IMG/VR virus record: IMGVR_UViG_3300018083_000005
Span: 1 to 57,639 of that record
Reading direction: 5' to 3' (one strand)
Source of the DNA: a virus
Lineage: Duplodnaviria > Caudoviricetes
DNA length: 57,639 nt
Part shown: piece by piece, positions 4,639-57,450 of the stretch
Numbering within the stretch: the stretch's first letter is position 1
Layout: every line of letters begins with the position of its first letter
Position numbers and translations under genes: made by a program
The notes under the pieces: generated by a model
What the model was told of the DNA's origin: nothing
The model's database searches: none
Seen by the model: the letters and a program-made list of their open reading frames with translations, nothing else

Positions 4639-6254
4639 TGGCTGACGTTCGCGTACTGCCTGACGTAAAGATTTCGGATGCAACTACACCATCCCAACAG
4701 GTTGCTGTCGATGCTTCCGGCCGCCTATCCGTCAACCTAACTGCATCATCTGCAACTGTCACTGTCGATTCGGAGCTACCAGCGGCATCAGCACTATCGT
4801 CGGATGCTGTTGCTAACCCGACTACTTCGACAATAGGATCGCATAACTATACGTATAACGGTACCAACTGGGATCGTCAGAGAAGTGCTGCTGCTGCACA
4901 GGATACAACTGGTACAGGAATTGCAGCGGCGGGTATCCTTGCACAGCTTGACGATGCTGCAACCGCGACGGTTACTGAGAACCAGTTTGCACCTGTGCGC
5001 CTTTCGTCCAGAAGGGCGCTGCTGGTTGAAGGTGTAGCGTCCGGTACAAACCTCAATGTTGCAATTGCGGCATCTTCCGCAACGGTAACGGTTGATACGG
5101 AACTTCCGGCTGCAGCGGCGCTTTCAGATACGACGGCTAACCCGACAACTGCAATGATCGGTGCGGCTGGCATGTTGTGGGACGGCTCTACGAACTGGAT
5201 TAGAGCGAAGTCTGCAGCTACGCTTGCTGATGCCCTTGCGAACCCTGGTTCTGGGCTTTCACAGAGTCAGGTGTTTCTCATGGGTTACAACGGTACGACA
5301 TGGGATCGCGTTAGAACTGCAAACACTGGTCGTCTGCAAGTTGACGTGATTACTGGTGGTGGCGGTACTCCCGCCAACATCATCGTTGACAATGCTGCCT
5401 TTACCGATGGTACTACCTCAATCGGTATCGCAGGATTTATCTTCGATGAAACTGCTGGTACTGCACTTACCGAGAATGACGGTGCCGCTGCACGTGTGGA
5501 TTCCAAGCGCGCACAGGTCATGGTCATTGAAGATGCGACGACTCGCGGACAGCGATCTGCGGTAGATGCATCTGGACGTTTGAGTGTTAACCTTACGGCA
5601 TCGTCCGCAACTGTGACGGTTGATACCGAGCTTCCCGCCGCCGCAGCTTTGTCGGATACGACTGCTAACCCCACTACTTCCATGATCGGCTCTGCCGGAA
5701 TGTTGTGGGATGGTACGACTAACTGGATCAGGGCCAAGAGTGCTGCTACTTTGGCTGATGCACTCGCTAACCCCGGTGCAGGTTTGGGTCAACAGCAAGT
5801 GTTCCTGATGGGTTACAACGGAACCACGTGGGATCGTGTTCGCACTGCTAACACAGGACGCTTGCAGGTCGATGTTATTACGGGTGGCGGTACGAACACG
5901 CCGACCGCGCCTAACCCGAACTACAACACTGCAGCGTCTATTGCGGCAGGCTCTACGTCGAACCACGATACTGCCGACTTCGGTGCAGCTACGAAAGCTG
6001 TTCGCTCTGTGATCATGGGTGCTTCGGTGCCGATGAAGGGTGAGCTTCAGTATGTTGACAACGCAGTTGGTACGACGCTGGCAGTGTTCTTCACTGCTGC
6101 AGGACAGACTCAGACGTTCAAGCCTGAGCATCCTGACTACTGGAAGCACACGTTTTCTGCAACTGCAGGACTCGACGCTTTCAGACTAATCCGCACAAAC
6201 CTCGATGCGTCTGAAGCTGCTGACCTTTACAGCATGGTCATGCACGAAGGCTAA
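4638..6254 (+). CDS. repeat-containing fibre protein (head or collar fibre-like)
   Basis: 538 aa, Ala/Thr-rich, repeated YNGTTWDR / GRLxVxx units, ~100-aa internal duplication (about 5067-5366 vs 5595-5891). Confidence 0.8.
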   Translation: MADVRVLPDVKISDATTPSQQVAVDASGRLSVNLTASSATVTVDSELPAASALSSDAVANPTTSTIGSHNYTYNGTNWDRQRSAAAAQDTTGTGIAAAGILAQLDDAATATVTENQFAPVRLSSRRALLVEGVASGTNLNVAIAASSATVTVDTELPAAAALSDTTANPTTAMIGAAGMLWDGSTNWIRAKSAATLADALANPGSGLSQSQVFLMGYNGTTWDRVRTANTGRLQVDVITGGGGTPANIIVDNAAFTDGTTSIGIAGFIFDETAGTALTENDGAAARVDSKRAQVMVIEDATTRGQRSAVDASGRLSVNLTASSATVTVDTELPAAAALSDTTANPTTSMIGSAGMLWDGTTNWIRAKSAATLADALANPGAGLGQQQVFLMGYNGTTWDRVRTANTGRLQVDVITGGGTNTPTAPNPNYNTAASIAAGSTSNHDTADFGAATKAVRSVIMGASVPMKGELQYVDNAVGTTLAVFFTAAGQTQTFKPEHPDYWKHTFSATAGLDAFRLIRTNLDASEAADLYSMVMHEG

Positions 6255-25895: not shown

Positions 25896-27771
25896 CAGTA
25901 AATGGTTTGGTAACTCTGATGCCGATGTTATCGGTGATTTACAGCGTCGTATTTCGACGGTAGAATCCTATGCTACTGACCTAGAGCGTAAGATCGCAAA
26001 CTTCGATTCGCCACAGCCTATCTCACGTGTCGATCCAGTTACCTATTTGAATCCCTTTGAGGGCCAACGCGCCATCGATCCCGCCGATGAGCAGCATATG
26101 TGGTACTCAAACGGAGAATGGCGCAAGGCTGGTGGCTTCGGCATCTATGAGATTAAAGTCTTCGATGATACGTTTGTAGTTACCACGGGCGATGATAAAT
26201 TCATCTGGCCGATCCCTCATGAGCTTGACGATGGACAGATCATTGAGGTTGAAGCGGCCGTAACTACAGCGGGTTCTGGTACCACTACCATTGCAATCCG
26301 TAAGGGGACAGCAGGTACAGCAGGCTCCGATATTCTATCCACGAATATCACAATTGATTCCGGAGAGTATAACTCCAAGGATGCCGCTACCCAACCTGTA
26401 GTAATTGATCCTACGATTGCTACGTGGGGTCAACATCTACATATCGATGTGGATGCCGTAGGCTCAGGGGCAAAGGGTCTGTGTGTCATGGTGACCCTGG
26501 TTCCCTCCAACCTCGCAAGCATCGTGCTAGCAGGAGCGCAAGGGCCAGCAGGAGGAATCACAGACTGGACAGGGCAGTGGGTAACTGCAACCGGGTATAC
26601 CGTAAACGAAGCTGTCTCTAACAACGGTAGTAGCTACGTTGCAATCGTAGACCACACTTCAGGGGCAACGAGCGAACCAGGGGTAGGAGCGAATTGGGAA
26701 GACTTCTGGATGCTTCTCGCAGAGGGAAGCTCCGGGGGTTCGGGTATGTCCACGCCTGTTACCCAGACTGCCCACGGTTTAGCGGTTGGTGACATAGTAC
26801 GTTTCGATGGTACAAACTATGTAAAGGCTCAAGCTGATACGGAAGCCCATGCTGAAGTTGTCGGACTAGTATCAGTAGTTGGTGGAGCAAACGATTTCAC
26901 CCTTGTCATGGGCGGCGACATTACCGGACTTACGGGCCTGACCTCGGGAAGTGTCTATTACCTCAGTCCGACGACTGCAGGAGCTTTGACGACTACTGAG
27001 CCGACGACTATTGGGCAGGTATCCAAGCCGCTACTCGTTGCACATTCTACGACTACAGGGTTCCTGTTCAACATGCGCGGGGTTGTCGTCCCGACGCCTA
27101 TCGAAGTCGGTCAGTCACAGGCCGATGGTTGGACACGTAGCTACGCGGAAACTTGGACATACGCGAGCGCCACAACATTCACTGTGGCTGGTGATCAGAC
27201 TGTGAAGTTCTCCAAGGGTACGCGGATTAAGCTAACACAGTCAACAGTCAAATACTTCATTGTCTCGGCAAGCTCGTTCAGCGCGGGAGTTACGACAGTT
27301 ACTATCACCGGGGGTACCGACTATACACTTGCCAATGCAACGGTCAGCGATAACTACTACTCATATGAGGCAAATCCACAGGGCTATCCGGGGACGTTCA
27401 ATTATACACTGGCTTGGACTTCAACGGGAACCGCTCCCTCTTTCGGCAACGCCGCTGTCGTCTCTCGTTTCAGTATGGTTGGAAATATCTGCCGAACTGA
27501 GTTCTTCATCACGTTTGGTTCCACGACTACCTTCGGCACCGGCTCATACCGCTTCTCCGCGCCTATCACTATCGCAAAATACGCCGCTGGCTCGGCGTGG
27601 GCCGTCGATCAGGGTACGTCCTTTCGGTCGGGGCTTGTTTTCGTCGACACCGGCAACAACGTCATTCGGATTCTAAGCGTTGCCGACGCCGCTGATGAGT
27701 GGGCAGCGACTGTTCCGAACACTTGGGCAAACACCGACCTCATCGTTGTCACAGCGACGTTTGAAATTTAA
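25888..27771 (+). CDS. tail fibre / receptor-binding protein
   Basis: N-terminal coiled coil, short GxQGPxG, CBM5/12-like W...Y...V..NGSSY...H.S...PG...W module, C-terminal adaptor plus tip. Confidence 0.85.
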   Translation: MTNSKWFGNSDADVIGDLQRRISTVESYATDLERKIANFDSPQPISRVDPVTYLNPFEGQRAIDPADEQHMWYSNGEWRKAGGFGIYEIKVFDDTFVVTTGDDKFIWPIPHELDDGQIIEVEAAVTTAGSGTTTIAIRKGTAGTAGSDILSTNITIDSGEYNSKDAATQPVVIDPTIATWGQHLHIDVDAVGSGAKGLCVMVTLVPSNLASIVLAGAQGPAGGITDWTGQWVTATGYTVNEAVSNNGSSYVAIVDHTSGATSEPGVGANWEDFWMLLAEGSSGGSGMSTPVTQTAHGLAVGDIVRFDGTNYVKAQADTEAHAEVVGLVSVVGGANDFTLVMGGDITGLTGLTSGSVYYLSPTTAGALTTTEPTTIGQVSKPLLVAHSTTTGFLFNMRGVVVPTPIEVGQSQADGWTRSYAETWTYASATTFTVAGDQTVKFSKGTRIKLTQSTVKYFIVSASSFSAGVTTVTITGGTDYTLANATVSDNYYSYEANPQGYPGTFNYTLAWTSTGTAPSFGNAAVVSRFSMVGNICRTEFFITFGSTTTFGTGSYRFSAPITIAKYAAGSAWAVDQGTSFRSGLVFVDTGNNVIRILSVADAADEWAATVPNTWANTDLIVVTATFEI

Positions 27772-27774
27772 CTA

Positions 27775-28413
27775 ATGAGTGCAATTGAATTCTCACCCAA
27801 TGCAGTATCTCTCGACGGTTGGCTTGCCGCTGGCGAAACCTTCACCTACGCAAGCTCTACTACTTTTACTGTGGCAGGGGATCGGACGGTACGTTACTCA
27901 AAAGGCACAAGAATCAAACTCACCCAGAGTACGGTTAAATACTTCGTGGTTACTCTCTCCGCATTTTCTGCCGGGGTGACAACAGTTACTATCACGGGCG
28001 GCACCGACTATACACTTGCAAACGCGGTAGTCAGTGATCCATTCTATTCCTATGCAGCAAATCCCCAGGGCTACCCCAGGGGCTTTAACTATACTCCGAC
28101 GTTCACGGGGTTTTCTGCAAACCCGGCCACATCTGTTTACTTCTCCGTTCAAGGAACGGTTGTCACCTGTGTATTCTATCCTGGTTCAAATGGAACGAGC
28201 AACGCGAACTCGCTTACTATGTCTTTGCCCATCGCGGTAGGCTCAGGAGTGTGGACTGCGATGCGCGGATTCGACAACGGCGTAGATGTAACGAACTCTG
28301 CGATGGGTCTTCCAAGTGGCTCTACGCTCACGGTCTACAAGGATTGGGCCGGTGGCGGCTGGACTACCTCGGGAGCCAAGCAAGCGTCCGGCACGATCAC
28401 GTACATAATGTGA
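27775..28413 (+). CDS. stand-alone receptor-binding module, paralogue 2
   Basis: First ~105 aa nearly identical to the corresponding part of 25888-27771; divergent C-terminal tip. Confidence 0.85.
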   Translation: MSAIEFSPNAVSLDGWLAAGETFTYASSTTFTVAGDRTVRYSKGTRIKLTQSTVKYFVVTLSAFSAGVTTVTITGGTDYTLANAVVSDPFYSYAANPQGYPRGFNYTPTFTGFSANPATSVYFSVQGTVVTCVFYPGSNGTSNANSLTMSLPIAVGSGVWTAMRGFDNGVDVTNSAMGLPSGSTLTVYKDWAGGGWTTSGAKQASGTITYIM

Positions 28414-28419
28414 GCTAAT

Positions 28420-29055
28420 ATGAGTGCAATAGAAGTCATACGAGAACGTGGCGACGGTTGGATATACGCCGACGAAACACTGACCTATGCCAGCGCGACT
28501 ACTTTCACTGTCGCGGGTGATAGAACAGTCCGTTATTCCAAAGGTACTCGGCTTAAGCTAACGCAATCAACAGTCAAATACTTCGTCGTTACCTTATCTT
28601 CTTTCTCAGCCGGGGTGACCACGGTTACCTTCACAGGAGGTACGGACTACACACTTGCCAATGCTACTATCAGTGATCCGTTCTATTCATATGCTACAAA
28701 CCCACAAGGGTATCCGACCTACTTTAACTACACTCCAACATGGGGAGGATTCTCTACCGCTCCGGCACTTGGAGGCGGGATGTGCAGGTTCTCAGTTGTT
28801 GGAGGAGTATGTTTCTATATGGCTCATTTCAACACATCTGGAACCAGCAACGCTACTAGCTTGACGGCTTCTATCCCCGTCACTAACGCAAGCTTTGGTC
28901 AGTACCCCGTCACCCGCATACAGGACAATGGAACTTACTCCTTCGGAATGTGCGAGGTTACTTCTGTACTCACATTCTTCAAGGATGGAAGCGGTACAGG
29001 CTTCACAGCTAGCGGGTCAAAGAACGCTTGGTGGGGAGTGTCCTACATCATCTAA
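28420..29055 (+). CDS. stand-alone receptor-binding module, paralogue 3
   Basis: Same conserved DGW..ET.TYAS...KGTR.KLTQSTVKYF...NPQGYP..FNYT segment; third distinct tip. Confidence 0.85.
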   Translation: MSAIEVIRERGDGWIYADETLTYASATTFTVAGDRTVRYSKGTRLKLTQSTVKYFVVTLSSFSAGVTTVTFTGGTDYTLANATISDPFYSYATNPQGYPTYFNYTPTWGGFSTAPALGGGMCRFSVVGGVCFYMAHFNTSGTSNATSLTASIPVTNASFGQYPVTRIQDNGTYSFGMCEVTSVLTFFKDGSGTGFTASGSKNAWWGVSYII

Positions 29056-46875: not shown

Positions 46876-47448
46876 TTACGCGCCCCCGCAACCCCATGCT
46901 CCGTAGCCAAAGCGAGAATAGACGTTAAGGGCAGCCTGGTATTGCTGTCTGGGTGTAGCGAGATAGGCTTCGGAAGGCGCACCGGCTGGCTTGTATCCGT
47001 CCCACGTGGAATTAGCGAAACCGAATGCTCCCTGATAGGCACCACTATTCCAGTCCCATCTTGAAGCTCCTGGCCCTGTACCACCTTGATATCCTGTTTC
47101 ACAGCGAGCTATCCTTTGCCATTTGGAGGGGAGCCATTGCCACCATGCGTAATGGTAAATCCACTTGGTATACTGTTCGTGATAGGCATGGGCTTGACCT
47201 CGCCAAGATGTAACCACGAAGCGTTTATAGGCACAAGCGTGCTTCCTGCGCTCTGGGTAGTATGTAGGACTTCGTGCATCACCTAGCTCCTTTTGATAGT
47301 ACCAAACCTTAGCACGGTAGTAGACTATGGCTTTTTCTGCCGATCTGCACGTTACTACTTTGACTTTTTCCTGGGGCTTTCGCTGTTGGCTATCGCCGCT
47401 ACCTACGAACAGCAGCGCGACCAGTATGGCAGCTAGTCCTAGCAGGAT
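46876..47448 (-). CDS. rpf: secreted resuscitation-promoting factor (Rpf transglycosylase domain), non-canonical start
   Basis: WQRIARCETG...W.WNSG.YQG.F.F...TW..Y...A..AT..QQ..AA...G.GAW.C; frame open 77 codons upstream of the listed GTG through a signal-peptide-like ILLGLAAILVALLFVG to ATC/CTG behind AAGGAG. Confidence 0.85.
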   Translation of the reverse strand: MLLGLAAILVALLFVGSGDSQQRKPQEKVKVVTCRSAEKAIVYYRAKVWYYQKELGDARSPTYYPERRKHACAYKRFVVTSWRGQAHAYHEQYTKWIYHYAWWQWLPSKWQRIARCETGYQGGTGPGASRWDWNSGAYQGAFGFANSTWDGYKPAGAPSEAYLATPRQQYQAALNVYSRFGYGAWGCGGA

Positions 47449-47476
47449 TCCTTCTCCTTGTTAGTTTACATGACCT

Positions 47477-47571
47477 CACGGGCGAAGGATGGACTATCCA
47501 CTTTTCTGCACGGGGATGGGTGCAGTGGGGAGATGGGTAGGATAGTCCATCCTCTTTATCGTTTGCCCGTG
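47477..47571 (-). ncRNA. long-stem RNA element with C-rich loops directly upstream of rpf RBS
   Basis: CACGGGC/GCCCGTG plus AGGATGGACTATCC/GGATAGTCCATCCT stems enclosing CCCATCTCCCC and a TGCAC-CCATCCCC-GTGCA hairpin. Confidence 0.6.
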
Positions 47572-47574
47572 GAA

Positions 47575-47658
47575 TTAAAACGAAGGAGAGGGACACGTAA
47601 CAGCTTGTTTAAAGCCGATGCATGCCCCTCTCCTGAGCGTGTACCAAGGGAGGTACAT
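47575..47658 (-). ncRNA. candidate ~85-nt anti-RBS small RNA
   Basis: Starts about 6 nt after a canonical -10; 5' hairpin UGUACC-UCCCUU-GGUACA; 3' 14-bp hairpin followed by UCGUUUU. Confidence 0.6.
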
Positions 47659-47663
47659 GCCGC

Positions 47664-47692
47664 ACGGTAGCACGTAAATCCCTAGTTGTCAA
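47664..47692 (-). promoter_or_regulatory. canonical promoter TTGACA-N17-TACCGT
   Basis: 17-bp spacer with TG extension. Confidence 0.75.
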
Positions 47693-49776: not shown

Positions 49777-49795
49777 AGTATACCACACGTGTCAA
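49777..49795 (-). promoter_or_regulatory. short-spacer promoter-like site TTGACA-N7-TATACT
   Basis: TTGACAcgtgtggTATACT. Confidence 0.8.
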
Positions 49796-49801
49796 GACAA
49801 T

Positions 49802-49859
49802 TGTGGGGCTAGAGGTTGCCGTCACCCCGCTAGAGGAGATTATTTCCTCTAGCCCCACA
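49802..49859 (-). other. 14-bp inverted-repeat stem with alternative inner pairing
   Basis: TGTGGGGCTAGAGG...CCTCTAGCCCCACA with a second CCTCTAGC copy inside (minus strand). Confidence 0.7.
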
Positions 49860-49862
49860 CTT

Positions 49863-50015
49863 TTAGTGCATCAGCATGTCCTGCCGAAGCAGGATGCCGA
49901 AGTTCTGGTAGATAATGAGAATGAACATGGCGTCCACGTAGTCCTGCTCGCTTTCAAACGAGGCAAGGAACTCGGGCCTGTTGTAATACTGCAACTGCCA
50001 CATGTCAATTCTCAT
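49863..50015 (-). CDS. small hypothetical protein
   Basis: MRIDMWQLQYY...; weak RBS. Confidence 0.5.
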   Translation of the reverse strand: MRIDMWQLQYYNRPEFLASFESEQDYVDAMFILIIYQNFGILLRQDMLMH

Positions 50016-50027
50016 TTCGGTGTTAGT

Positions 50028-50068
50028 TGGGGAGTGTAGCAAACCGTTGCTTTTCACTACACTCCCCA
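50028..50068 (-). other. 16-bp stem-loop after 50084-50422
   Basis: UGGGGAGUGUAGUGAA/UUUGCUACACUCCCCA; G-U pairs work on the minus strand. Confidence 0.7.
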
Positions 50069-50083
50069 TTCTACGAGTCTAGC

Positions 50084-53680: not shown

Positions 53681-53793
53681 TGTGGAGAGTGTACGGATCA
53701 GGTGAAATCCTGACGAGGCCAGTTTTCAGTCATGGGACGCAGGGCTTCAATCCTGCACGACGACGATTTAGACCTTGACGTACACTCTCCACA
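53681..53793 (-). ncRNA. structured intergenic RNA element with 15-bp closing stem
   Basis: TGTGGAGAGTGTACG...CGTACACTCTCCACA enclosing GCAGG/CCTGC and TCAGG/CCTGA hairpins. Confidence 0.6.
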
Positions 53794-54814: not shown

Positions 54815-54850
54815 ACTTACCTCCCTTGAGTAGTTTGACCGTATGCTTTC

Positions 54851-54869
54851 ATTATAACATACGTGTCAA
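54851..54869 (-). promoter_or_regulatory. short-spacer promoter-like site TTGACA-N7-TATAAT
   Basis: TTGACAcgtatgtTATAAT, both hexamers perfect consensus. Confidence 0.8.
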
Positions 54870-54879
54870 GGGACAGTTT

Positions 54880-54998
54880 CTCACGCTGACCCCACTGAGG
54901 TACCGAGTGCCAGCCGATGCTGGTCGGGGTATAATTGCTCCCACCCGATACCTCAGTGCGGCCAGCGACCGCACACTCCCTGCGAACAGCCACAGGAG
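54880..54998 (-). ncRNA. candidate ~115-nt ncRNA with its own promoter
   Basis: 5' CUG-UUCG-CAG hairpin then a ~25-bp helix (54884-54967) whose G-U pairs work on the minus strand; no credible ORF. Confidence 0.65.
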
Positions 54999-55000
54999 CA

Positions 55001-55029
55001 ATCTTACCACAGTTTACCACTTGTGTCAA
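55001..55029 (-). promoter_or_regulatory. dual-spacing promoter: TTGACA-N7-TAAACT and TTGACA-N17-TAAGAT
   Basis: A 10-bp near-duplication GTGGTAAACT/GTGGTAAGAT provides a -10 at both spacings. Confidence 0.8.
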
Positions 55030-55033
55030 GTCT

Positions 55034-55963: not shown

Positions 55964-56193
55964 TCGATCACACCCTTGTATTCGGTTGCGATTGACCATC
56001 CGTCTGTGCCATACCAGTCGATATAACCACGCTTCTCGTCACGTTCGGGGATGGTCATATGGTAGTAAATCTTGATGGAATCAAAGTGTGTCTTACCCTT
56101 CAATGACAATCCCGATGGATATTCGATGGTACGAATATCCACGTTCTTATCATCGAGGTACTCGACAAGTCTTTTACGCTGCTCGCCTGTCAT
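55960..56193 (-). CDS. hypothetical protein
   Basis: MTGEQRKRL...; GGGAGG RBS, ATGA overlap. Confidence 0.75.
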   Translation of the reverse strand: MTGEQRKRLVEYLDDKNVDIRTIEYPSGLSLKGKTHFDSIKIYYHMTIPERDEKRGYIDWYGTDGWSIATEYKGVIE

Positions 56194-56777
56194 GCTGCGA
56201 AGTCCTCCCTTGAATAGCCCCACTCGCTAATCATACGCTCTTGTTCTGCGGGGTCGTTGCACTTACATGATCCATCGGCACGGTAGTGATCCGGCGAGAT
56301 AATCACGTGCGGACATGACATGATATCAGACTGTTTCATCTGATACTGTGAAACTCCCGCATGGTTCGACAAGTCTACTAGCCAGTCACCTTCATGACAC
56401 TTGCAGATTGAGTTCGCATACGCGGGGTACATCATGCTTCCCACGTTGCGGTATCCAGTCTCCTCAAACTTATTCTCAAAGTCCTCGGAACCTTTGTAGT
56501 CTGCCCACATAGTCTTGATACGGGCATCCGGTTCACGCTTGAAGATTGCACGCATGAAATCTCGGTGTCCGTGCCAACAAACGGCATACACTCTACGATC
56601 AGGACTAAATCCCGATGCGGAAGTTCGCTGGTAGATATGGTTACCATTCCTCTTTTCTCCAGCCGGGCGTAGCGTAAATCTCAGTGCTCGCCCATCCTCA
56701 CGCATGCTGTAGAGTGACACGCTGACTTCATCTGCGATGATCTGCAGTTGAGTCTCGTTCACTCTCCATACTTTCAT
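56190..56777 (-). CDS. hypothetical phage protein
   Basis: CWHGHRDFM and CPH-I..P-HYR-DGSC-CND motifs; TACCAAGGGAGGTA RBS. Confidence 0.85.
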   Translation of the reverse strand: MKVWRVNETQLQIIADEVSVSLYSMREDGRALRFTLRPAGEKRNGNHIYQRTSASGFSPDRRVYAVCWHGHRDFMRAIFKREPDARIKTMWADYKGSEDFENKFEETGYRNVGSMMYPAYANSICKCHEGDWLVDLSNHAGVSQYQMKQSDIMSCPHVIISPDHYRADGSCKCNDPAEQERMISEWGYSREDFAA

Positions 56778-56812
56778 GGTACCTCCCTTGGTAGATTTGT
56801 TTGCGCGTTTCA

Positions 56813-57225
56813 TTCAACGTGCCGCGCCCCACGTTATCTCCGTCTTTTTGGAGGGCCACTATCTCTAATACGGTGGTGTCCATATCCGAAGATATGTGCG
56901 GAATTCCATTCCCCATCCGCAGGTTCACGTATCAGAGGTTGCCATTATTCGGCATAGGGAGTCGGCTAGTGGTCATTTTTACGGTGTGCGTTTTGGACAC
57001 GCTACCAACCACGAAATCACGTTACTCCCTATGCACTCTTTGAATCCTGAGTGGTACTGATACTAGTAGGTTACGATCCTAGGTTCTCAGCCCTTTACAG
57101 TGCAGGATTCTATGAGATAGTAGGAACGGGCTGAGGTGAGTCGAACCCTTTATTTTGGCCCCGCCTAACCGTAGGCTTCCCTTCGTCGAGACAAACACCT
57201 ACTATCTCATGCAATCCAGCAAAGT
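56813..57225 (-). ncRNA. candidate large structured non-coding RNA (~410 nt)
   Basis: No credible ORF; three long closing stems (57112-57210, 57042-57110, 56952-57034) and five consecutive hairpins including C(UUCG)G at 56881-56896. Confidence 0.65.
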
Positions 57226-57228
57226 TAC

Positions 57229-57450
57229 TTATCGGTTTTCTTTGGTCATGTACTCACAGACACCATTCGTGAAGTCTGTATCACGTAGGTATCCGTAATC
57301 ATACAGTCCGTGCTTAAGAGGGACGCGGATTCTTGTGGGCATTCTAACCCACGTGCGTACCTTTCCATTCACGTACCATCGCGCTCCATCGCGTGAGTCT
57401 ATAAGACTCTCACGATACTGTAGTTCACGCGCTTCCTCTAGGGTAATCAT
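57229..57450 (-). CDS. hypothetical phage protein
   Basis: W-VNGKV-TW...R-RVPLK-GLY-YGY; GGAGG/GAGGA RBS. Confidence 0.85.
   Translation of the reverse strand: MITLEEARELQYRESLIDSRDGARWYVNGKVRTWVRMPTRIRVPLKHGLYDYGYLRDTDFTNGVCEYMTKENR

Follow-up and report, generated by a model that had tools for sequence, protein, structure and literature searches.

Comparison of divergent viral sequences assigns the 3' ~240 nt (57036-56798, minus strand) of a gene-free gap near one end of a 57,639-nt stretch of DNA from an uncultured phage (the whole of which was analysed, and which we call the window) to a conserved, undescribed RNA fold. We consider it very probable that the gap contains a real, conserved and hitherto undescribed structured RNA. 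The core of this fold, helices P1-P7 with a possible pseudoknot, P8, retains invariant loops and junctions (GAAUGGA, GACACC, AAAAAGAC, GGGCGCGG and AAACGCGCA) while the stems around them vary in sequence. A search of the whole window with the 4227 models of Rfam 15 gave no match at the gathering thresholds, GOLLD, ROOL, HEARO, raiA, tmRNA, YrlA, riboswitches and ribozymes included, and with E-values up to 10 the region 56600-57450 yielded only SNORD121A (18.1 bits against a threshold of 44). The homologous loci L016, L102 and L093 likewise gave only chance matches to snoRNA and lncRNA models of at most 15.5 bits.

The gene-free gap and its fold statistics

The gap spans 56778-57228 on the minus strand (451 nt), lies between a 73-aa gene upstream (57229..57450) and a 195-aa gene downstream (56190..56777), and is non-coding. 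It contains no long ORF and no match to a PHROG or Pfam family; the only ORFs wholly within it on the gene strand, of 34 and 39 aa, both lack a ribosome-binding site. All three forward frames of the core carry at least two stops each in the window, L016 and L102 alike, so that the conserved ORF across the region, which the initial annotation had named as the refuting case, is not found. That annotation had delimited a non-coding region of about 410 nt at 56813-57225; its non-coding character stands but its boundary has to be moved, because the ATG of the next gene lies at 56777-56775, behind the ribosome-binding site GGGAGG (56787-56782), and the stretch therefore reaches down to 56778. Homologues of the 195-aa protein in the records G003 and G001 align starting at this very methionine. 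The 195-aa gene itself matched no PHROG or Pfam family, whereas the 73-aa gene is conserved in 78 metagenome loci. The structural model of its product is a small β-barrel (pLDDT 89.3), for which comparison with the PDB gave no significant match, the best being Tudor-, SAWADEE- and Sm-like barrels (E at least 0.17, TM at most 0.49). We considered this protein as an RNA-binding partner of the element and dropped it, given these weak matches and the presence of the RNA without this gene in the record G008.

No intrinsic terminator, that is a G+C-rich hairpin followed by a U-run, is found on either strand of 56778-57228, nor does the minus strand show a promoter-like site anywhere from the contig end to domain 1. 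Elsewhere in the operon, two gaps begin with TTGACA-N16-18-TANNNT sites, which are followed by conserved structure. The gap is most likely read as minus-strand RNA together with the small genes around it; its "early" status would follow from position, as would the "processed sRNAs" that the initial annotation had offered as one reading. The elements of the gap lie ~400-850 nt from the contig end, where a 123-nt terminal repeat is found.

The gap is rich in complementary segments, with 14 complementary 8-mer pairs where 300 dinucleotide shuffles average 1.2. The longest complementary arm, of 13 nt, was reached by none of these shuffles, and the perfect 13-bp and 11-bp closing stems of the segments termed domains 1 and 3 are both real and above chance. 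The fold of the whole gap (-141.3 kcal/mol, z -2.95) was equalled by none of 100 shuffles. In raw fold energy the gap does not stand out from the rest of the genome, ranking only 177th of 520 windows of the same size, and the genome as a whole has 24 long inverted repeats, of which many lie in other operon gaps, compared with 3-10 in shuffles. By domain, the minus-strand z-scores are -3.61 for domain 1, -1.82 for domain 2, -3.63 for domain 3 and -2.60 for the P2-P5 domain, of which domain 2 taken alone is not above chance.

Conserved core of the element

The core recurs in two divergent contigs, L016 and L102, which together with the window are otherwise unalignable. A model of it, R2, which matches 56816..56963 (minus strand) from the 3' arm of P1 through P7, scores 132 bits on the window (E 6e-35), 147 on L016 and 152 on L102. 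The comparison rests on these three diverged sequences for the core and on two types for domain 3, numbers too few for a test of the R-scape kind. In a hand-made table of the core helices, with helices chosen by eye sequence by sequence, 142 of the 143 helix cells pair (138 Watson-Crick and four G-U, with no A-C and one other combination), and 22 of the 45 shared positions have changed on both sides. A model-fitted alignment, which leans towards structure because it was fitted to the model, gives 88% paired cells and double changes in 12 of its 28 pairs, versus 0-3 when partners are slid; this level of paired change was reached by none of 500 shuffles.

The organization of the core is nested. 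P2 (56943-56938 with 56859-56854; two positions with double changes across the three homologues) is continued by P3 (56937-56929 with 56871-56863; six such positions), and the two together (56854..56943) enclose the hairpins P4 and P5. P4 (56898..56920), with the stem GCGGA/UCCGC, has changed on both sides at four of its five positions, and its loop carries the GAAUGGA conserved in all three homologues. P5 (56881..56896), CAUAUC-UUCG-GAUAUG in the window, is replaced in L016 and L102 by a hairpin at the same place with an unrelated stem sequence, and next to it lies the unpaired, invariant GACACC (56875..56880). Beyond the enclosed domain follow P6 (56838..56853) and P7 (56816..56835), all of these features being on the minus strand. 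Each presents an invariant 8-nt loop, AAAAAGAC and GGGCGCGG respectively, on a stem with every cell paired in the model-fitted alignment (two of four pairs changed on both sides in P6, three of four in P7). Every stem and string named in the initial annotation was recovered at its position, and the five adjacent hairpins that it had described are indeed present, but they do not all stand side by side, since P4 and P5 are nested within P2 and P3.

Downstream of P7 the conserved 9-mer AAACGCGCA contains the string CGCGC (56803..56807, minus strand), the proposed 3' strand of a pseudoknot, P8, whose 5' strand would be the GCGCG of the P7 loop (56827-56823). Since the two strands are complementary but unvarying in all three homologues, this possible pairing is one that we infer from the sequences; a plain fold prediction favours instead a nested GCGCG/CGCGC helix. 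The 3' strand lies 15 nt before the GGGAGG of the window, and a second copy of it in L016 lies 14 nt before a GGGAGG. The initial annotation had proposed a different pseudoknot, between CUCAGCCC (57135-57128) in domain 1 and GGGCUGAG (57093-57086) in domain 2. This 8-bp complementarity, within 57086..57135 on the minus strand, is present, but an 8-bp complementary pair is held by 61% of 300 dinucleotide shuffles, and it therefore carries no weight on its own; the pseudoknot to which the data point instead is that of the P7 loop with the 9-mer ahead of the ribosome-binding site. Two further candidates were set aside: a pairing of GGACAC (overlapping GACACC) with the apical GUGUCC of domain 3, which is possible in the window and has no equivalent at the same place in L016 or L102, and a hammerhead-like CUGAGG of L016 and L102, which is absent from the window and is without an Rfam match.

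P1 encloses an insert, and the two together constitute domain 3 of the initial annotation (56952..57034, minus strand). A perfect 11-bp closing stem (57034-57024 with 56962-56952) is followed by stems of 6, 3 and 4 bp, with conserved unpaired stretches between them. At the centre of P1, GGGAGU/ACUCCC (57029-57024 with 56962-56957) recurs as the same six pairs in L016 and L102; like P8, it is invariant among the core homologues and hence gives no covariation signal there. A copy of domain 3 that is 82% identical occurs in five loci of another phage lineage (L024, L026, L027, L092 and L093; the L024 type), in which the P1 centre covaries to GGUAGU/ACUACC. Between the window and the L024 type, 97.8% of the cells of 24 pairs are paired, and seven of the 24 pairs have changed on both sides, as against none when the partner is slid by one to three columns. 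The model R1 scores 103 bits on domain 3 of the window.

The core signal is strand-specific. The helix cells of domain 3 and the core include six G-U as against no A-C combinations, the P2-P5 domain (56854..56943) folds with z -2.60 on the minus strand versus -0.84 on the plus strand, and the element is oriented like the flanking genes in all four contexts in which it occurs.

Modular composition and distribution

The 5' part of the gap behaves differently from the core, in that diverged homologues are lacking for the lineage-specific domains 1 and 2. Domain 1 (57101..57221, minus strand) is a long closing duplex around three small hairpins; its perfect 13-bp stem (57210-57198 with 57124-57112) extends to 24-nt arms that are 88% complementary. 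It scores better when folded as the plus strand (z -5.61) than as the minus strand (z -3.61), and its only copy beyond the window, at the locus L014, is 99% identical and thus too alike for covariation. Domain 2 (57042..57110, minus strand) has an 8-bp closing stem, GAAUCCUG/CAGGAUUC (57110-57103 with 57049-57042), around 53 nt, and GAAUCCUG has an alternative partner in the outer part of domain 1, the two pairings sharing 57103-57116. A single 169-nt contig from an RNA sequencing run carries 57042-57116 unchanged between unrelated flanks, and may owe its presence to DNA carry-over. Likewise, the P1 of this phage holds a 61-nt insert module, which occurs alone in another phage lineage. The undescribed large ncRNA of the initial annotation is thus borne out for the 3' ~240 nt, which have no Rfam match, no open frame and double changes in their stems; a single RNA of ~410 nt is not, considering that domains 1 and 2 are without diverged homologues, that modules occur separately and that domain 1 folds better on the plus strand.

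In L016 a promoter-like site, TTGACA-16-TGATAAGCT, ends a few bases before P1. In L102 there is an extra 3' domain, which is closed by a ~23-bp stem and followed by UUUAU, and the end of the core therefore still adjoins the ribosome-binding site. In G008, an otherwise unrelated record, the genomic setting is the same, the element being found among small genes whose operon runs divergently from the terminase gene. The genes downstream of the core are different in each homologue and belong to no known family, a situation unlike that of a classical riboswitch. Among the closest relatives of this phage, the 441-nt gap DNA was matched in none of three records, and the element is dispensable in that it is absent from these three. 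One relative, G001, has a different element with a 13-bp stem at the same place, followed by a U-run and a promoter-like site. A contig from a DNA sequencing run, of the form seen in G002, joins 56181 to 57238 via 252 other letters and lacks both the RNA and the 195-aa gene.

The family appears to be rare. A blastn search of the 50,697 phage records of INPHARED with the gap sequences of the window, L016 and L102 was without a match, and neither the 195-aa nor the 73-aa protein as a single query found a relative in IMG/VR, where relatives were recovered through a phrog_1221 neighbour and an alignment of the 73-aa family. A scan of eight viral records with R2 matched one, the already known L102 record, and a pattern scan of genome contigs gave eight matches, none confirmed by R1. 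Scans of viral contigs with a second core pattern (21 loci, 20 of them new) and a third (six loci, five new) gave no new locus confirmed by R2. The core is thus confirmed in only two IMG/VR records by pattern scans checked with R2, and domain 3 is present in three. Sequencing runs add 24 rows with the stretch or part of it, mostly DNA from sediment, soil and freshwater; two RNA-library rows hold 0.05 and 0.04 of the sampled words. The second RNA-library contig covers 57388-57517, in the upstream gene, again with DNA carry-over possible; the two RNA-library contigs cover 75 nt and 130 nt of the window, the core being outside both.

Possible modes of action and related phage RNAs

The reading that we favour, with confidence evenly divided for and against, is that of a modular, structured, cis-acting leader RNA of the early operon with a conserved, undescribed fold; to the cis-leader mechanism itself we give slightly less than even confidence. 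According to this proposal the gap would be a chain of separately folding modules rather than one indivisible RNA, and the core would work in cis, as a structured leader in the early message. Beside the ribosome-binding site, the conserved loops and P8 might form a platform for a protein or a small ligand, and such a partner would set the translation or stability of the downstream early gene or genes, with the long duplexes of domain 1 and P1 possibly serving as processing or stability sites. The proposal presupposes transcription of the gap, formation of the pseudoknot, action in cis and the existence of a partner. It is supported by the promoter-like site of L016, the lack of a terminator, the fixed distance of P8 from GGGAGG, the architecture of L102, the other gaps of the operon and the shared setting in G008. 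Against it count the lack of a promoter-like site ahead of domain 1 in the window, the diversity of the downstream genes, the absence of the element from the three closest relatives, the unremarkable raw fold energy and the better plus-strand fold of domain 1.

On the unlikely side, though to be taken seriously, is the production of one or more stable early ncRNAs, cut from the early transcript at the long duplexes and acting in trans on the host, for which the model would be the RNA of L5, D29 and StarStuff. The size, near-end position, orientation and absence of ORFs match that precedent as far as it is described in PMC5712189, the differing downstream genes would suit a free-standing RNA gene, and the duplexes of domain 1 (~22 bp) and P1 (11 bp) might be cut sites of the RNase III type; the ~23-bp stem and UUUAU of L102 also accord with it. 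However, the window shows no terminator-like site from the core to the start codon that follows it, the 9-mer AAACGCGCA is conserved at a fixed distance from the ribosome-binding site, and targets of the conserved motifs are not enriched in the phage genome (two for AACGCGCA versus 2.0 expected, three for GGGCGCGG versus 1.3). It is improbable that the gap is a mere row of unrelated hairpins with local roles in pausing or termination, RNase action or stabilization, and with no common fold or partner. Such a row would explain why domain 3 stands alone in the L024 type and domain 2 alone in the RNA-library contig, why G001 has another 13-bp-stem element in the same place, and why inverted repeats are so frequent in this genome. 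Yet three contigs that cannot otherwise be aligned share one order of helices, with P4 and P5 lying within P2 and P3, and five unpaired motifs are invariant amid changing stems, whereas simple stabilizers keep no loops.

An element acting at the level of DNA is very improbable, whether as an origin of replication, as a site for packaging or recombination, or as a small mobile element whose ends are inverted. Its patchy presence among close relatives and its proximity to the contig end with the terminal repeat would fit, and long inverted repeats could extrude as cruciforms; set against these are the bias towards G-U over A-C helix cells with the strand-specific fold signal of the core, the lack of iterons or direct repeats beyond two 8-nt chance pairs, and the absence of any visible target-site duplication at the G001 and G002 junctions. 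We attach hardly any probability to small peptides as the product, be it from a 13-codon GUG frame following the GGGAGU of P1 or from the 34- and 39-codon frames in domain 1. The string GGGAGU-AAC-GUG in P1 does resemble a ribosome-binding site with a start codon, and in the L024 type this frame also yields a peptide that begins similarly, but a 2-nt indel shifts the GUG frame between the two, and three of the five changed codons alter the residue, with all of those base changes compensated in the stem. Moreover, a start codon is missing at this place from L102 and the frame is a different one in L016, and the stops in every forward frame of the core tell against it too. As for domain 1 being a degenerate tRNA or tRNA-like element, this is close to refuted. 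The T-loop-like string GGUUCGACUC pointed out in the initial annotation is present at 57147-57138 and the closing stem does contain three hairpins, but ARAGORN predicted no tRNA and no tmRNA gene in the whole window, and the Rfam models for tRNA, tmRNA and YrlA gave no match at E-values up to 10. In addition, a closing stem of 13-22 bp, a would-be anticodon loop of 4 nt and a T stem of at most three pairs are at odds with a tRNA.

Returning to the leader reading, it lends itself to a wider and decidedly tentative generalization, which we hold to be unlikely as it stands: actinophage-like phages may build long early leaders from exchangeable structured RNA modules, much as domains are shuffled among proteins, and the P1-P8 core may be a new sensor or receptor RNA, or else the folded heart of a host-directed early RNA of the L5/D29 kind. 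As a sensor or receptor, the core could offer a pseudoknot platform, riboswitch-like or bound by a protein, and so time the translation of early genes. The invariant loops and the likely pseudoknot beside the ribosome-binding site offer a concrete structure to probe, to mutate and to use as bait for a partner. The element is a good lead rather than a finished discovery, because the family is rare so far, with three diverged copies of the core.

Long gene-free stretches are rare in phage genomes. To our knowledge, the fold and function of the best-studied actinophage example, the L5/D29 Pleft RNA, are still unknown; the comparable early non-coding stretch described here has a fold backed by paired mutations. 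[quoted passage not shown] 2017, PMC5712189). On that description this RNA is the closest analogue of our element, though not a homologue: with filters off, the best scores of R1 and R2 on L5 50300-52297 were 7.3 and 2.6 bits, respectively, indicating no homology to the L5/D29 RNA. Both regions, as far as that account extends, are ORF-free, ~450-500 nt long and found in siphoviruses of the actinophage type; they are placed close to the right end, on the early strand that reads leftward, and small genes of unknown function follow them. The L016 element, like the L5/D29 RNA as described, begins directly behind a promoter or promoter-like site, whereas in the window the element comes after two small ORFs and no such site was found.

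Other phage RNAs resemble the element in particular respects. GOLLD contains a variable part, and GOLLD and ROOL are likewise multi-domain structured phage RNAs with a conserved part beside variable ones; their Rfam models do not match our element, which is smaller, with a core of ~240 nt. In the mRNA leader of T4 gene 32, a pseudoknot operator near the ribosome-binding site is bound by protein for translational control. The likeness lies in a phage message that carries a hairpin-type pseudoknot a little ahead of a ribosome-binding site; P8, however, is only deduced from complementarity, and the genes downstream of it are not of one family. Phage T7 has RNase III processing hairpins between its early genes, which are similar to the present case in being long irregular duplexes in early-operon gaps, conserved in shape and not in sequence. 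By analogy, processing of the T7 type could explain domain 1 and other long stems, but not the loops and nested helices of the core.

The modules of the element also bear on catalogues of viral RNA structures. The candidate structured viral RNAs that Fremin, Bhatt and Kyrpides (2023, PMC10690425) derived from IMG/VR are described as 29-151 nt long and as requiring at least three distinct IMG/VR regions, and they include putative cis-regulatory structures upstream of genes; going by this description, they are the same kind of object from the same data source as our element. RNA modules are swapped between phages, and catalogues limited to short motifs of that size range, as described, would miss such swapping. 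Domain 3, with its three IMG/VR records, could be among the candidates of that set as it is described.

A conserved putative RNA core in an ORF-free gap

The most useful outcome of the analysis, going beyond the initial annotation, is that the gap between a 73-aa and a 195-aa gene appears to hold an RNA core of several helices, conserved and not previously described, together with exchangeable modules. The virus record is complete (57,639 nt, terminal repeat of 123 nt), and by PHROG matches its plus strand carries the genes for terminase, portal, capsid, tape measure and tail, and its minus strand those for DNA polymerase, primase, a Sak4-like protein, an exonuclease and a helicase. By one marker protein, the closest cultured relatives are Rhodococcus, Gordonia, Mycobacterium, Microbacterium and Streptomyces phages, every one of them below 60% identity. 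Both genes flanking the gap are on the minus strand; as the 195-aa gene begins at ATG 56777 behind GGGAGG, a start matching that of its homologues, and the 73-aa gene occupies 57229-57450, the gene-free interval is 56778-57228 (451 nt). The 73-aa protein is predicted to form a small β-barrel with one short helix (pLDDT 89); the model has no significant match in the PDB, where Tudor- and Sm-like folds rank first with E values no better than 0.17.

The only ORFs wholly within the gap on the gene strand have 34 and 39 codons and are without ribosome-binding sites. The conserved part of the region has at least two stops per forward frame in each of three homologues, and the window's single open reverse frame is interrupted in the two others. 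Rfam returned no family at gathering scores for the whole window, nor at E up to 10 for the region and its homologues, which fits the undescribed RNA proposed in the initial annotation. That annotation was largely right in what it observed, and its interpretation was partly borne out. All of its stems and sequence strings lie exactly where it placed them, and the dense structure it described is evident from 14 complementary 8-mer pairs in the gap against 1.2 expected, a 13-bp arm matched by none of 300 dinucleotide shuffles, and a fold z of -2.95 for the whole gap. On the minus strand z is -3.6 for domain 1 (57101-57221), -3.6 for domain 3 (56952-57034) and -1.8 for domain 2 by itself (57042-57110); by raw fold energy the gap ranks 177th of 520 windows, which is ordinary for this genome. 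The long-range 8-bp pairing between domains 1 and 2 is present, but it carries no weight by itself since 61% of shuffles hold one 8-bp complementarity, and the string likened to a T-loop is in no tRNA or tmRNA.

The core comprises the 3' ~240 nt (57036-56798, minus strand). L016, a 2-kb metagenome contig with a 73-aa homologue (62% identical) and a gene-free gap of 436 nt, can be aligned to the window in the central part of that gap, starting at the 3' arm of P1, and a pattern of three shared motifs detected a further locus, L102, which likewise lies in a 436-nt gap, in the IMG/VR record G008. Eight helices are common to the three, namely P1-P7 and a possible pseudoknot, P8; P4 and P5 correspond to the GCGGA/UCCGC and CAUAUC-UUCG-GAUAUG hairpins of the initial annotation. 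In a helix table extracted by coordinates, 138 of the 143 cells are Watson-Crick, four G-U, none A-C and one other, and 22 of 45 positions common to at least two sequences are changed on both sides, in helices chosen by eye. Because of that choice, we also derived an RNA model of the core (R2) from sequences aligned by MAFFT, and repeated the count on the alignment fitted to this model. In this alignment, which holds only three sequences and is biased towards the structure, the share of paired cells is 88% and both bases have changed in 12 of 28 pairs, versus 0-3 with slid partners and a count that none of 500 shuffles reaches. No base differs among the three sequences in the loops GAAUGGA, AAAAAGAC and GGGCGCGG or in the unpaired stretches GACACC and AAACGCGCA.

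Three observations lead us to read the element as acting as RNA rather than DNA, from the minus strand: the helices of domain 3 and the core have six G-U cells versus no A-C cells, the P2-P5 domain folds with a z of -2.6 on the minus strand versus -0.8 on the plus strand, and in every context the element runs in the direction of its neighbouring genes. R2 and a model of domain 3 (R1) found no further members in ~367 kb of loci, nor did R2 in eight viral records, and none of 33 other pattern hits in viral and prokaryote collections was confirmed. The known core set thus consists of the window (plus L014, a near-identical metagenome locus), L016 and L102. The record behind L102 is without the 73-aa gene and the marker protein, yet carries the RNA in a similar setting, among small unknown genes in an operon that diverges from the terminase gene.

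Modules around the core and arrangements in relatives

A metagenome scan with an alignment of the 73-aa protein gave 78 loci, in phage contigs of soil, sediment and water, with which the gap was then compared by blastn and nhmmer. L014 has a partial copy of the gap (99% identical), whereas domain 3 alone has an 82% identical match in L024, L026 and L027; a separate pattern scan adds the IMG/VR records behind L092 and L093 to this set, so that domain 3 is known from the window and the L024 type. In an alignment of three rows with two distinct sequences, and with the structure supplied by us, domain 3 has 24 pairs, 97.8% of cells paired, and seven pairs with both bases changed (five of them within the 11-bp closing stem), against none after a shift of the 3' partners by 1-3 columns. 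Its unpaired stretches are almost unchanged, as just two unpaired columns differ within the element. In the L024-type lineage domain 3 lies in a 206-nt gap ahead of a different gene.

Domains 1 and 2 are found only in the window's phage and its 99% twin, and we treat them as putative separate add-on modules. The segment 57042-57116 is unchanged in an RNA-library contig with unrelated flanks on either side, and GAAUCCUG (57110-57103) is complementary both to domain 1's outer arm and to the end of domain 2, with either of which it could pair. The plus strand gives domain 1 its best fold (z -5.6, better than on the minus strand), a G-U-rich hairpin of 13 pairs, and a weak promoter-like site there (57094-57121, TTTACA-16-GATAGT with TG) is directed into it; an antisense transcript of domain 1 is therefore possible. 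Instead of domains 1 and 2, L016 and L102 have one further domain of 150-190 nt, which separates the core from the ribosome-binding site.

Three related IMG/VR records (G001, G002 and G003) were retrieved via a neighbouring protein, and the 441-nt gap sequence is absent from all three. G001 keeps both flanking genes ~155 nt apart with a different element in between (L002 3660-3790), in which a 13-bp stem enclosing two hairpins (z -3.74) is followed by a U-run and then TTGACA-17-TAGAAT; the 195-aa homologue that this element precedes has an in-frame TGA. In G002, as in a metagenome contig, another small ORF replaces the RNA and the 195-aa gene, and in G003 the 195-aa gene directly follows a different ORF. 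These other arrangements at the locus indicate that the element is dispensable and patchily distributed.

Possible modes of action

Several points fit the core acting in cis as a leader. No terminator-like site was found between the core and the next gene, in L016 a promoter-like site ends immediately before P1, and promoter-like sites also open two further gaps of the operon, as described below. The distance from the 3' strand of P8 to GGGAGG is 15 nt in the window and 14 nt for the second copy in L016, and in L102 a ~23-bp stem closes the extra domain, so that the core end stays beside the ribosome-binding site. The A-rich stretch ahead of CGCGC would make a fitting third loop for a pseudoknot of the hairpin type. 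GGGAGU/ACUCCC, at the centre of P1, resembles a ribosome-binding site and its complement and is the sole stem invariant among the three sequences; this may reflect competition with the real ribosome-binding site, or merely shared descent. The downstream genes differ and belong to no known family, which speaks against a classical riboswitch. Systems for comparison include the leader of T4 gene 32 and the RNase III sites of T7.

The main rival to a cis-acting leader is a stable trans-acting RNA, cut from an early transcript. The closest precedent comes from phages L5, D29 and StarStuff, in which ~500 nt of non-coding DNA follow Pleft at the right end; the RNA made there is the most abundant of the early transcripts, is stable and host-toxic, and is processed into species of 100-500 nt (PMC5712189). 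Our element resembles the region so described in layout, but homology to it was not found. Domain 3 might be an entry in a catalogue of IMG/VR, which holds 10,006 candidate structured RNAs with motifs of 29-151 nt in at least three regions (PMC10690425).

Other structured regions of the genome

TTGACA-N16-18-TANNNT occurs at nine sites in the window versus 1.46 expected, eight of them on the minus strand, and TG often precedes the second hexamer. Two further gaps in the element's operon begin with such sites; structure is conserved in relatives for one of these two and for a third gap without such a site. The gap at 47218-47692, in the same operon (minus, ORF-free, ~460 nt), begins with the promoter-like TTGACA-N17-TACCGT (47692-47664), contains long hairpins, one with 14-bp arms (47486-47553), and is partly alignable to L002. 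The leader ahead of the phrog_1221 gene (54815-55033, minus) has TTGACA-17-TAAGAT with TG (55029-55001), followed by a highly stable structure, and is conserved in G001 (L002), where six predicted pairs are changed on both sides. A Y-shaped element closed by a 15-bp stem (53681-53793, minus) lies immediately before a small ORF that is unannotated and has a ribosome-binding site of its own; the element is 84% identical in G002 (L003), with two pairs changed on both sides. An apparent gap at 49789-50083 (minus) has two long hairpins (14- and 12-bp arms), and its middle part, 82% identical in L003 and L002, is readable as a small unannotated ORF from ATG.

Perfect inverted repeats of at least 10 bp number 24 in the window versus 3-10 in shuffles. 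The segment 1321-2400 has a G+C content of 57-68% versus ~50% elsewhere and the genome's most stable folds, on both strands; it contains several inverted repeats with 130-150-nt spacers and overlaps ORFs on both strands. Finally, a 243-nt repeat is present in three copies (69-73% identical) in consecutive tail-region genes (27148-28716), and a 95-nt repeat in two copies (79% identical) inside a 538-aa ORF (5268-5890).
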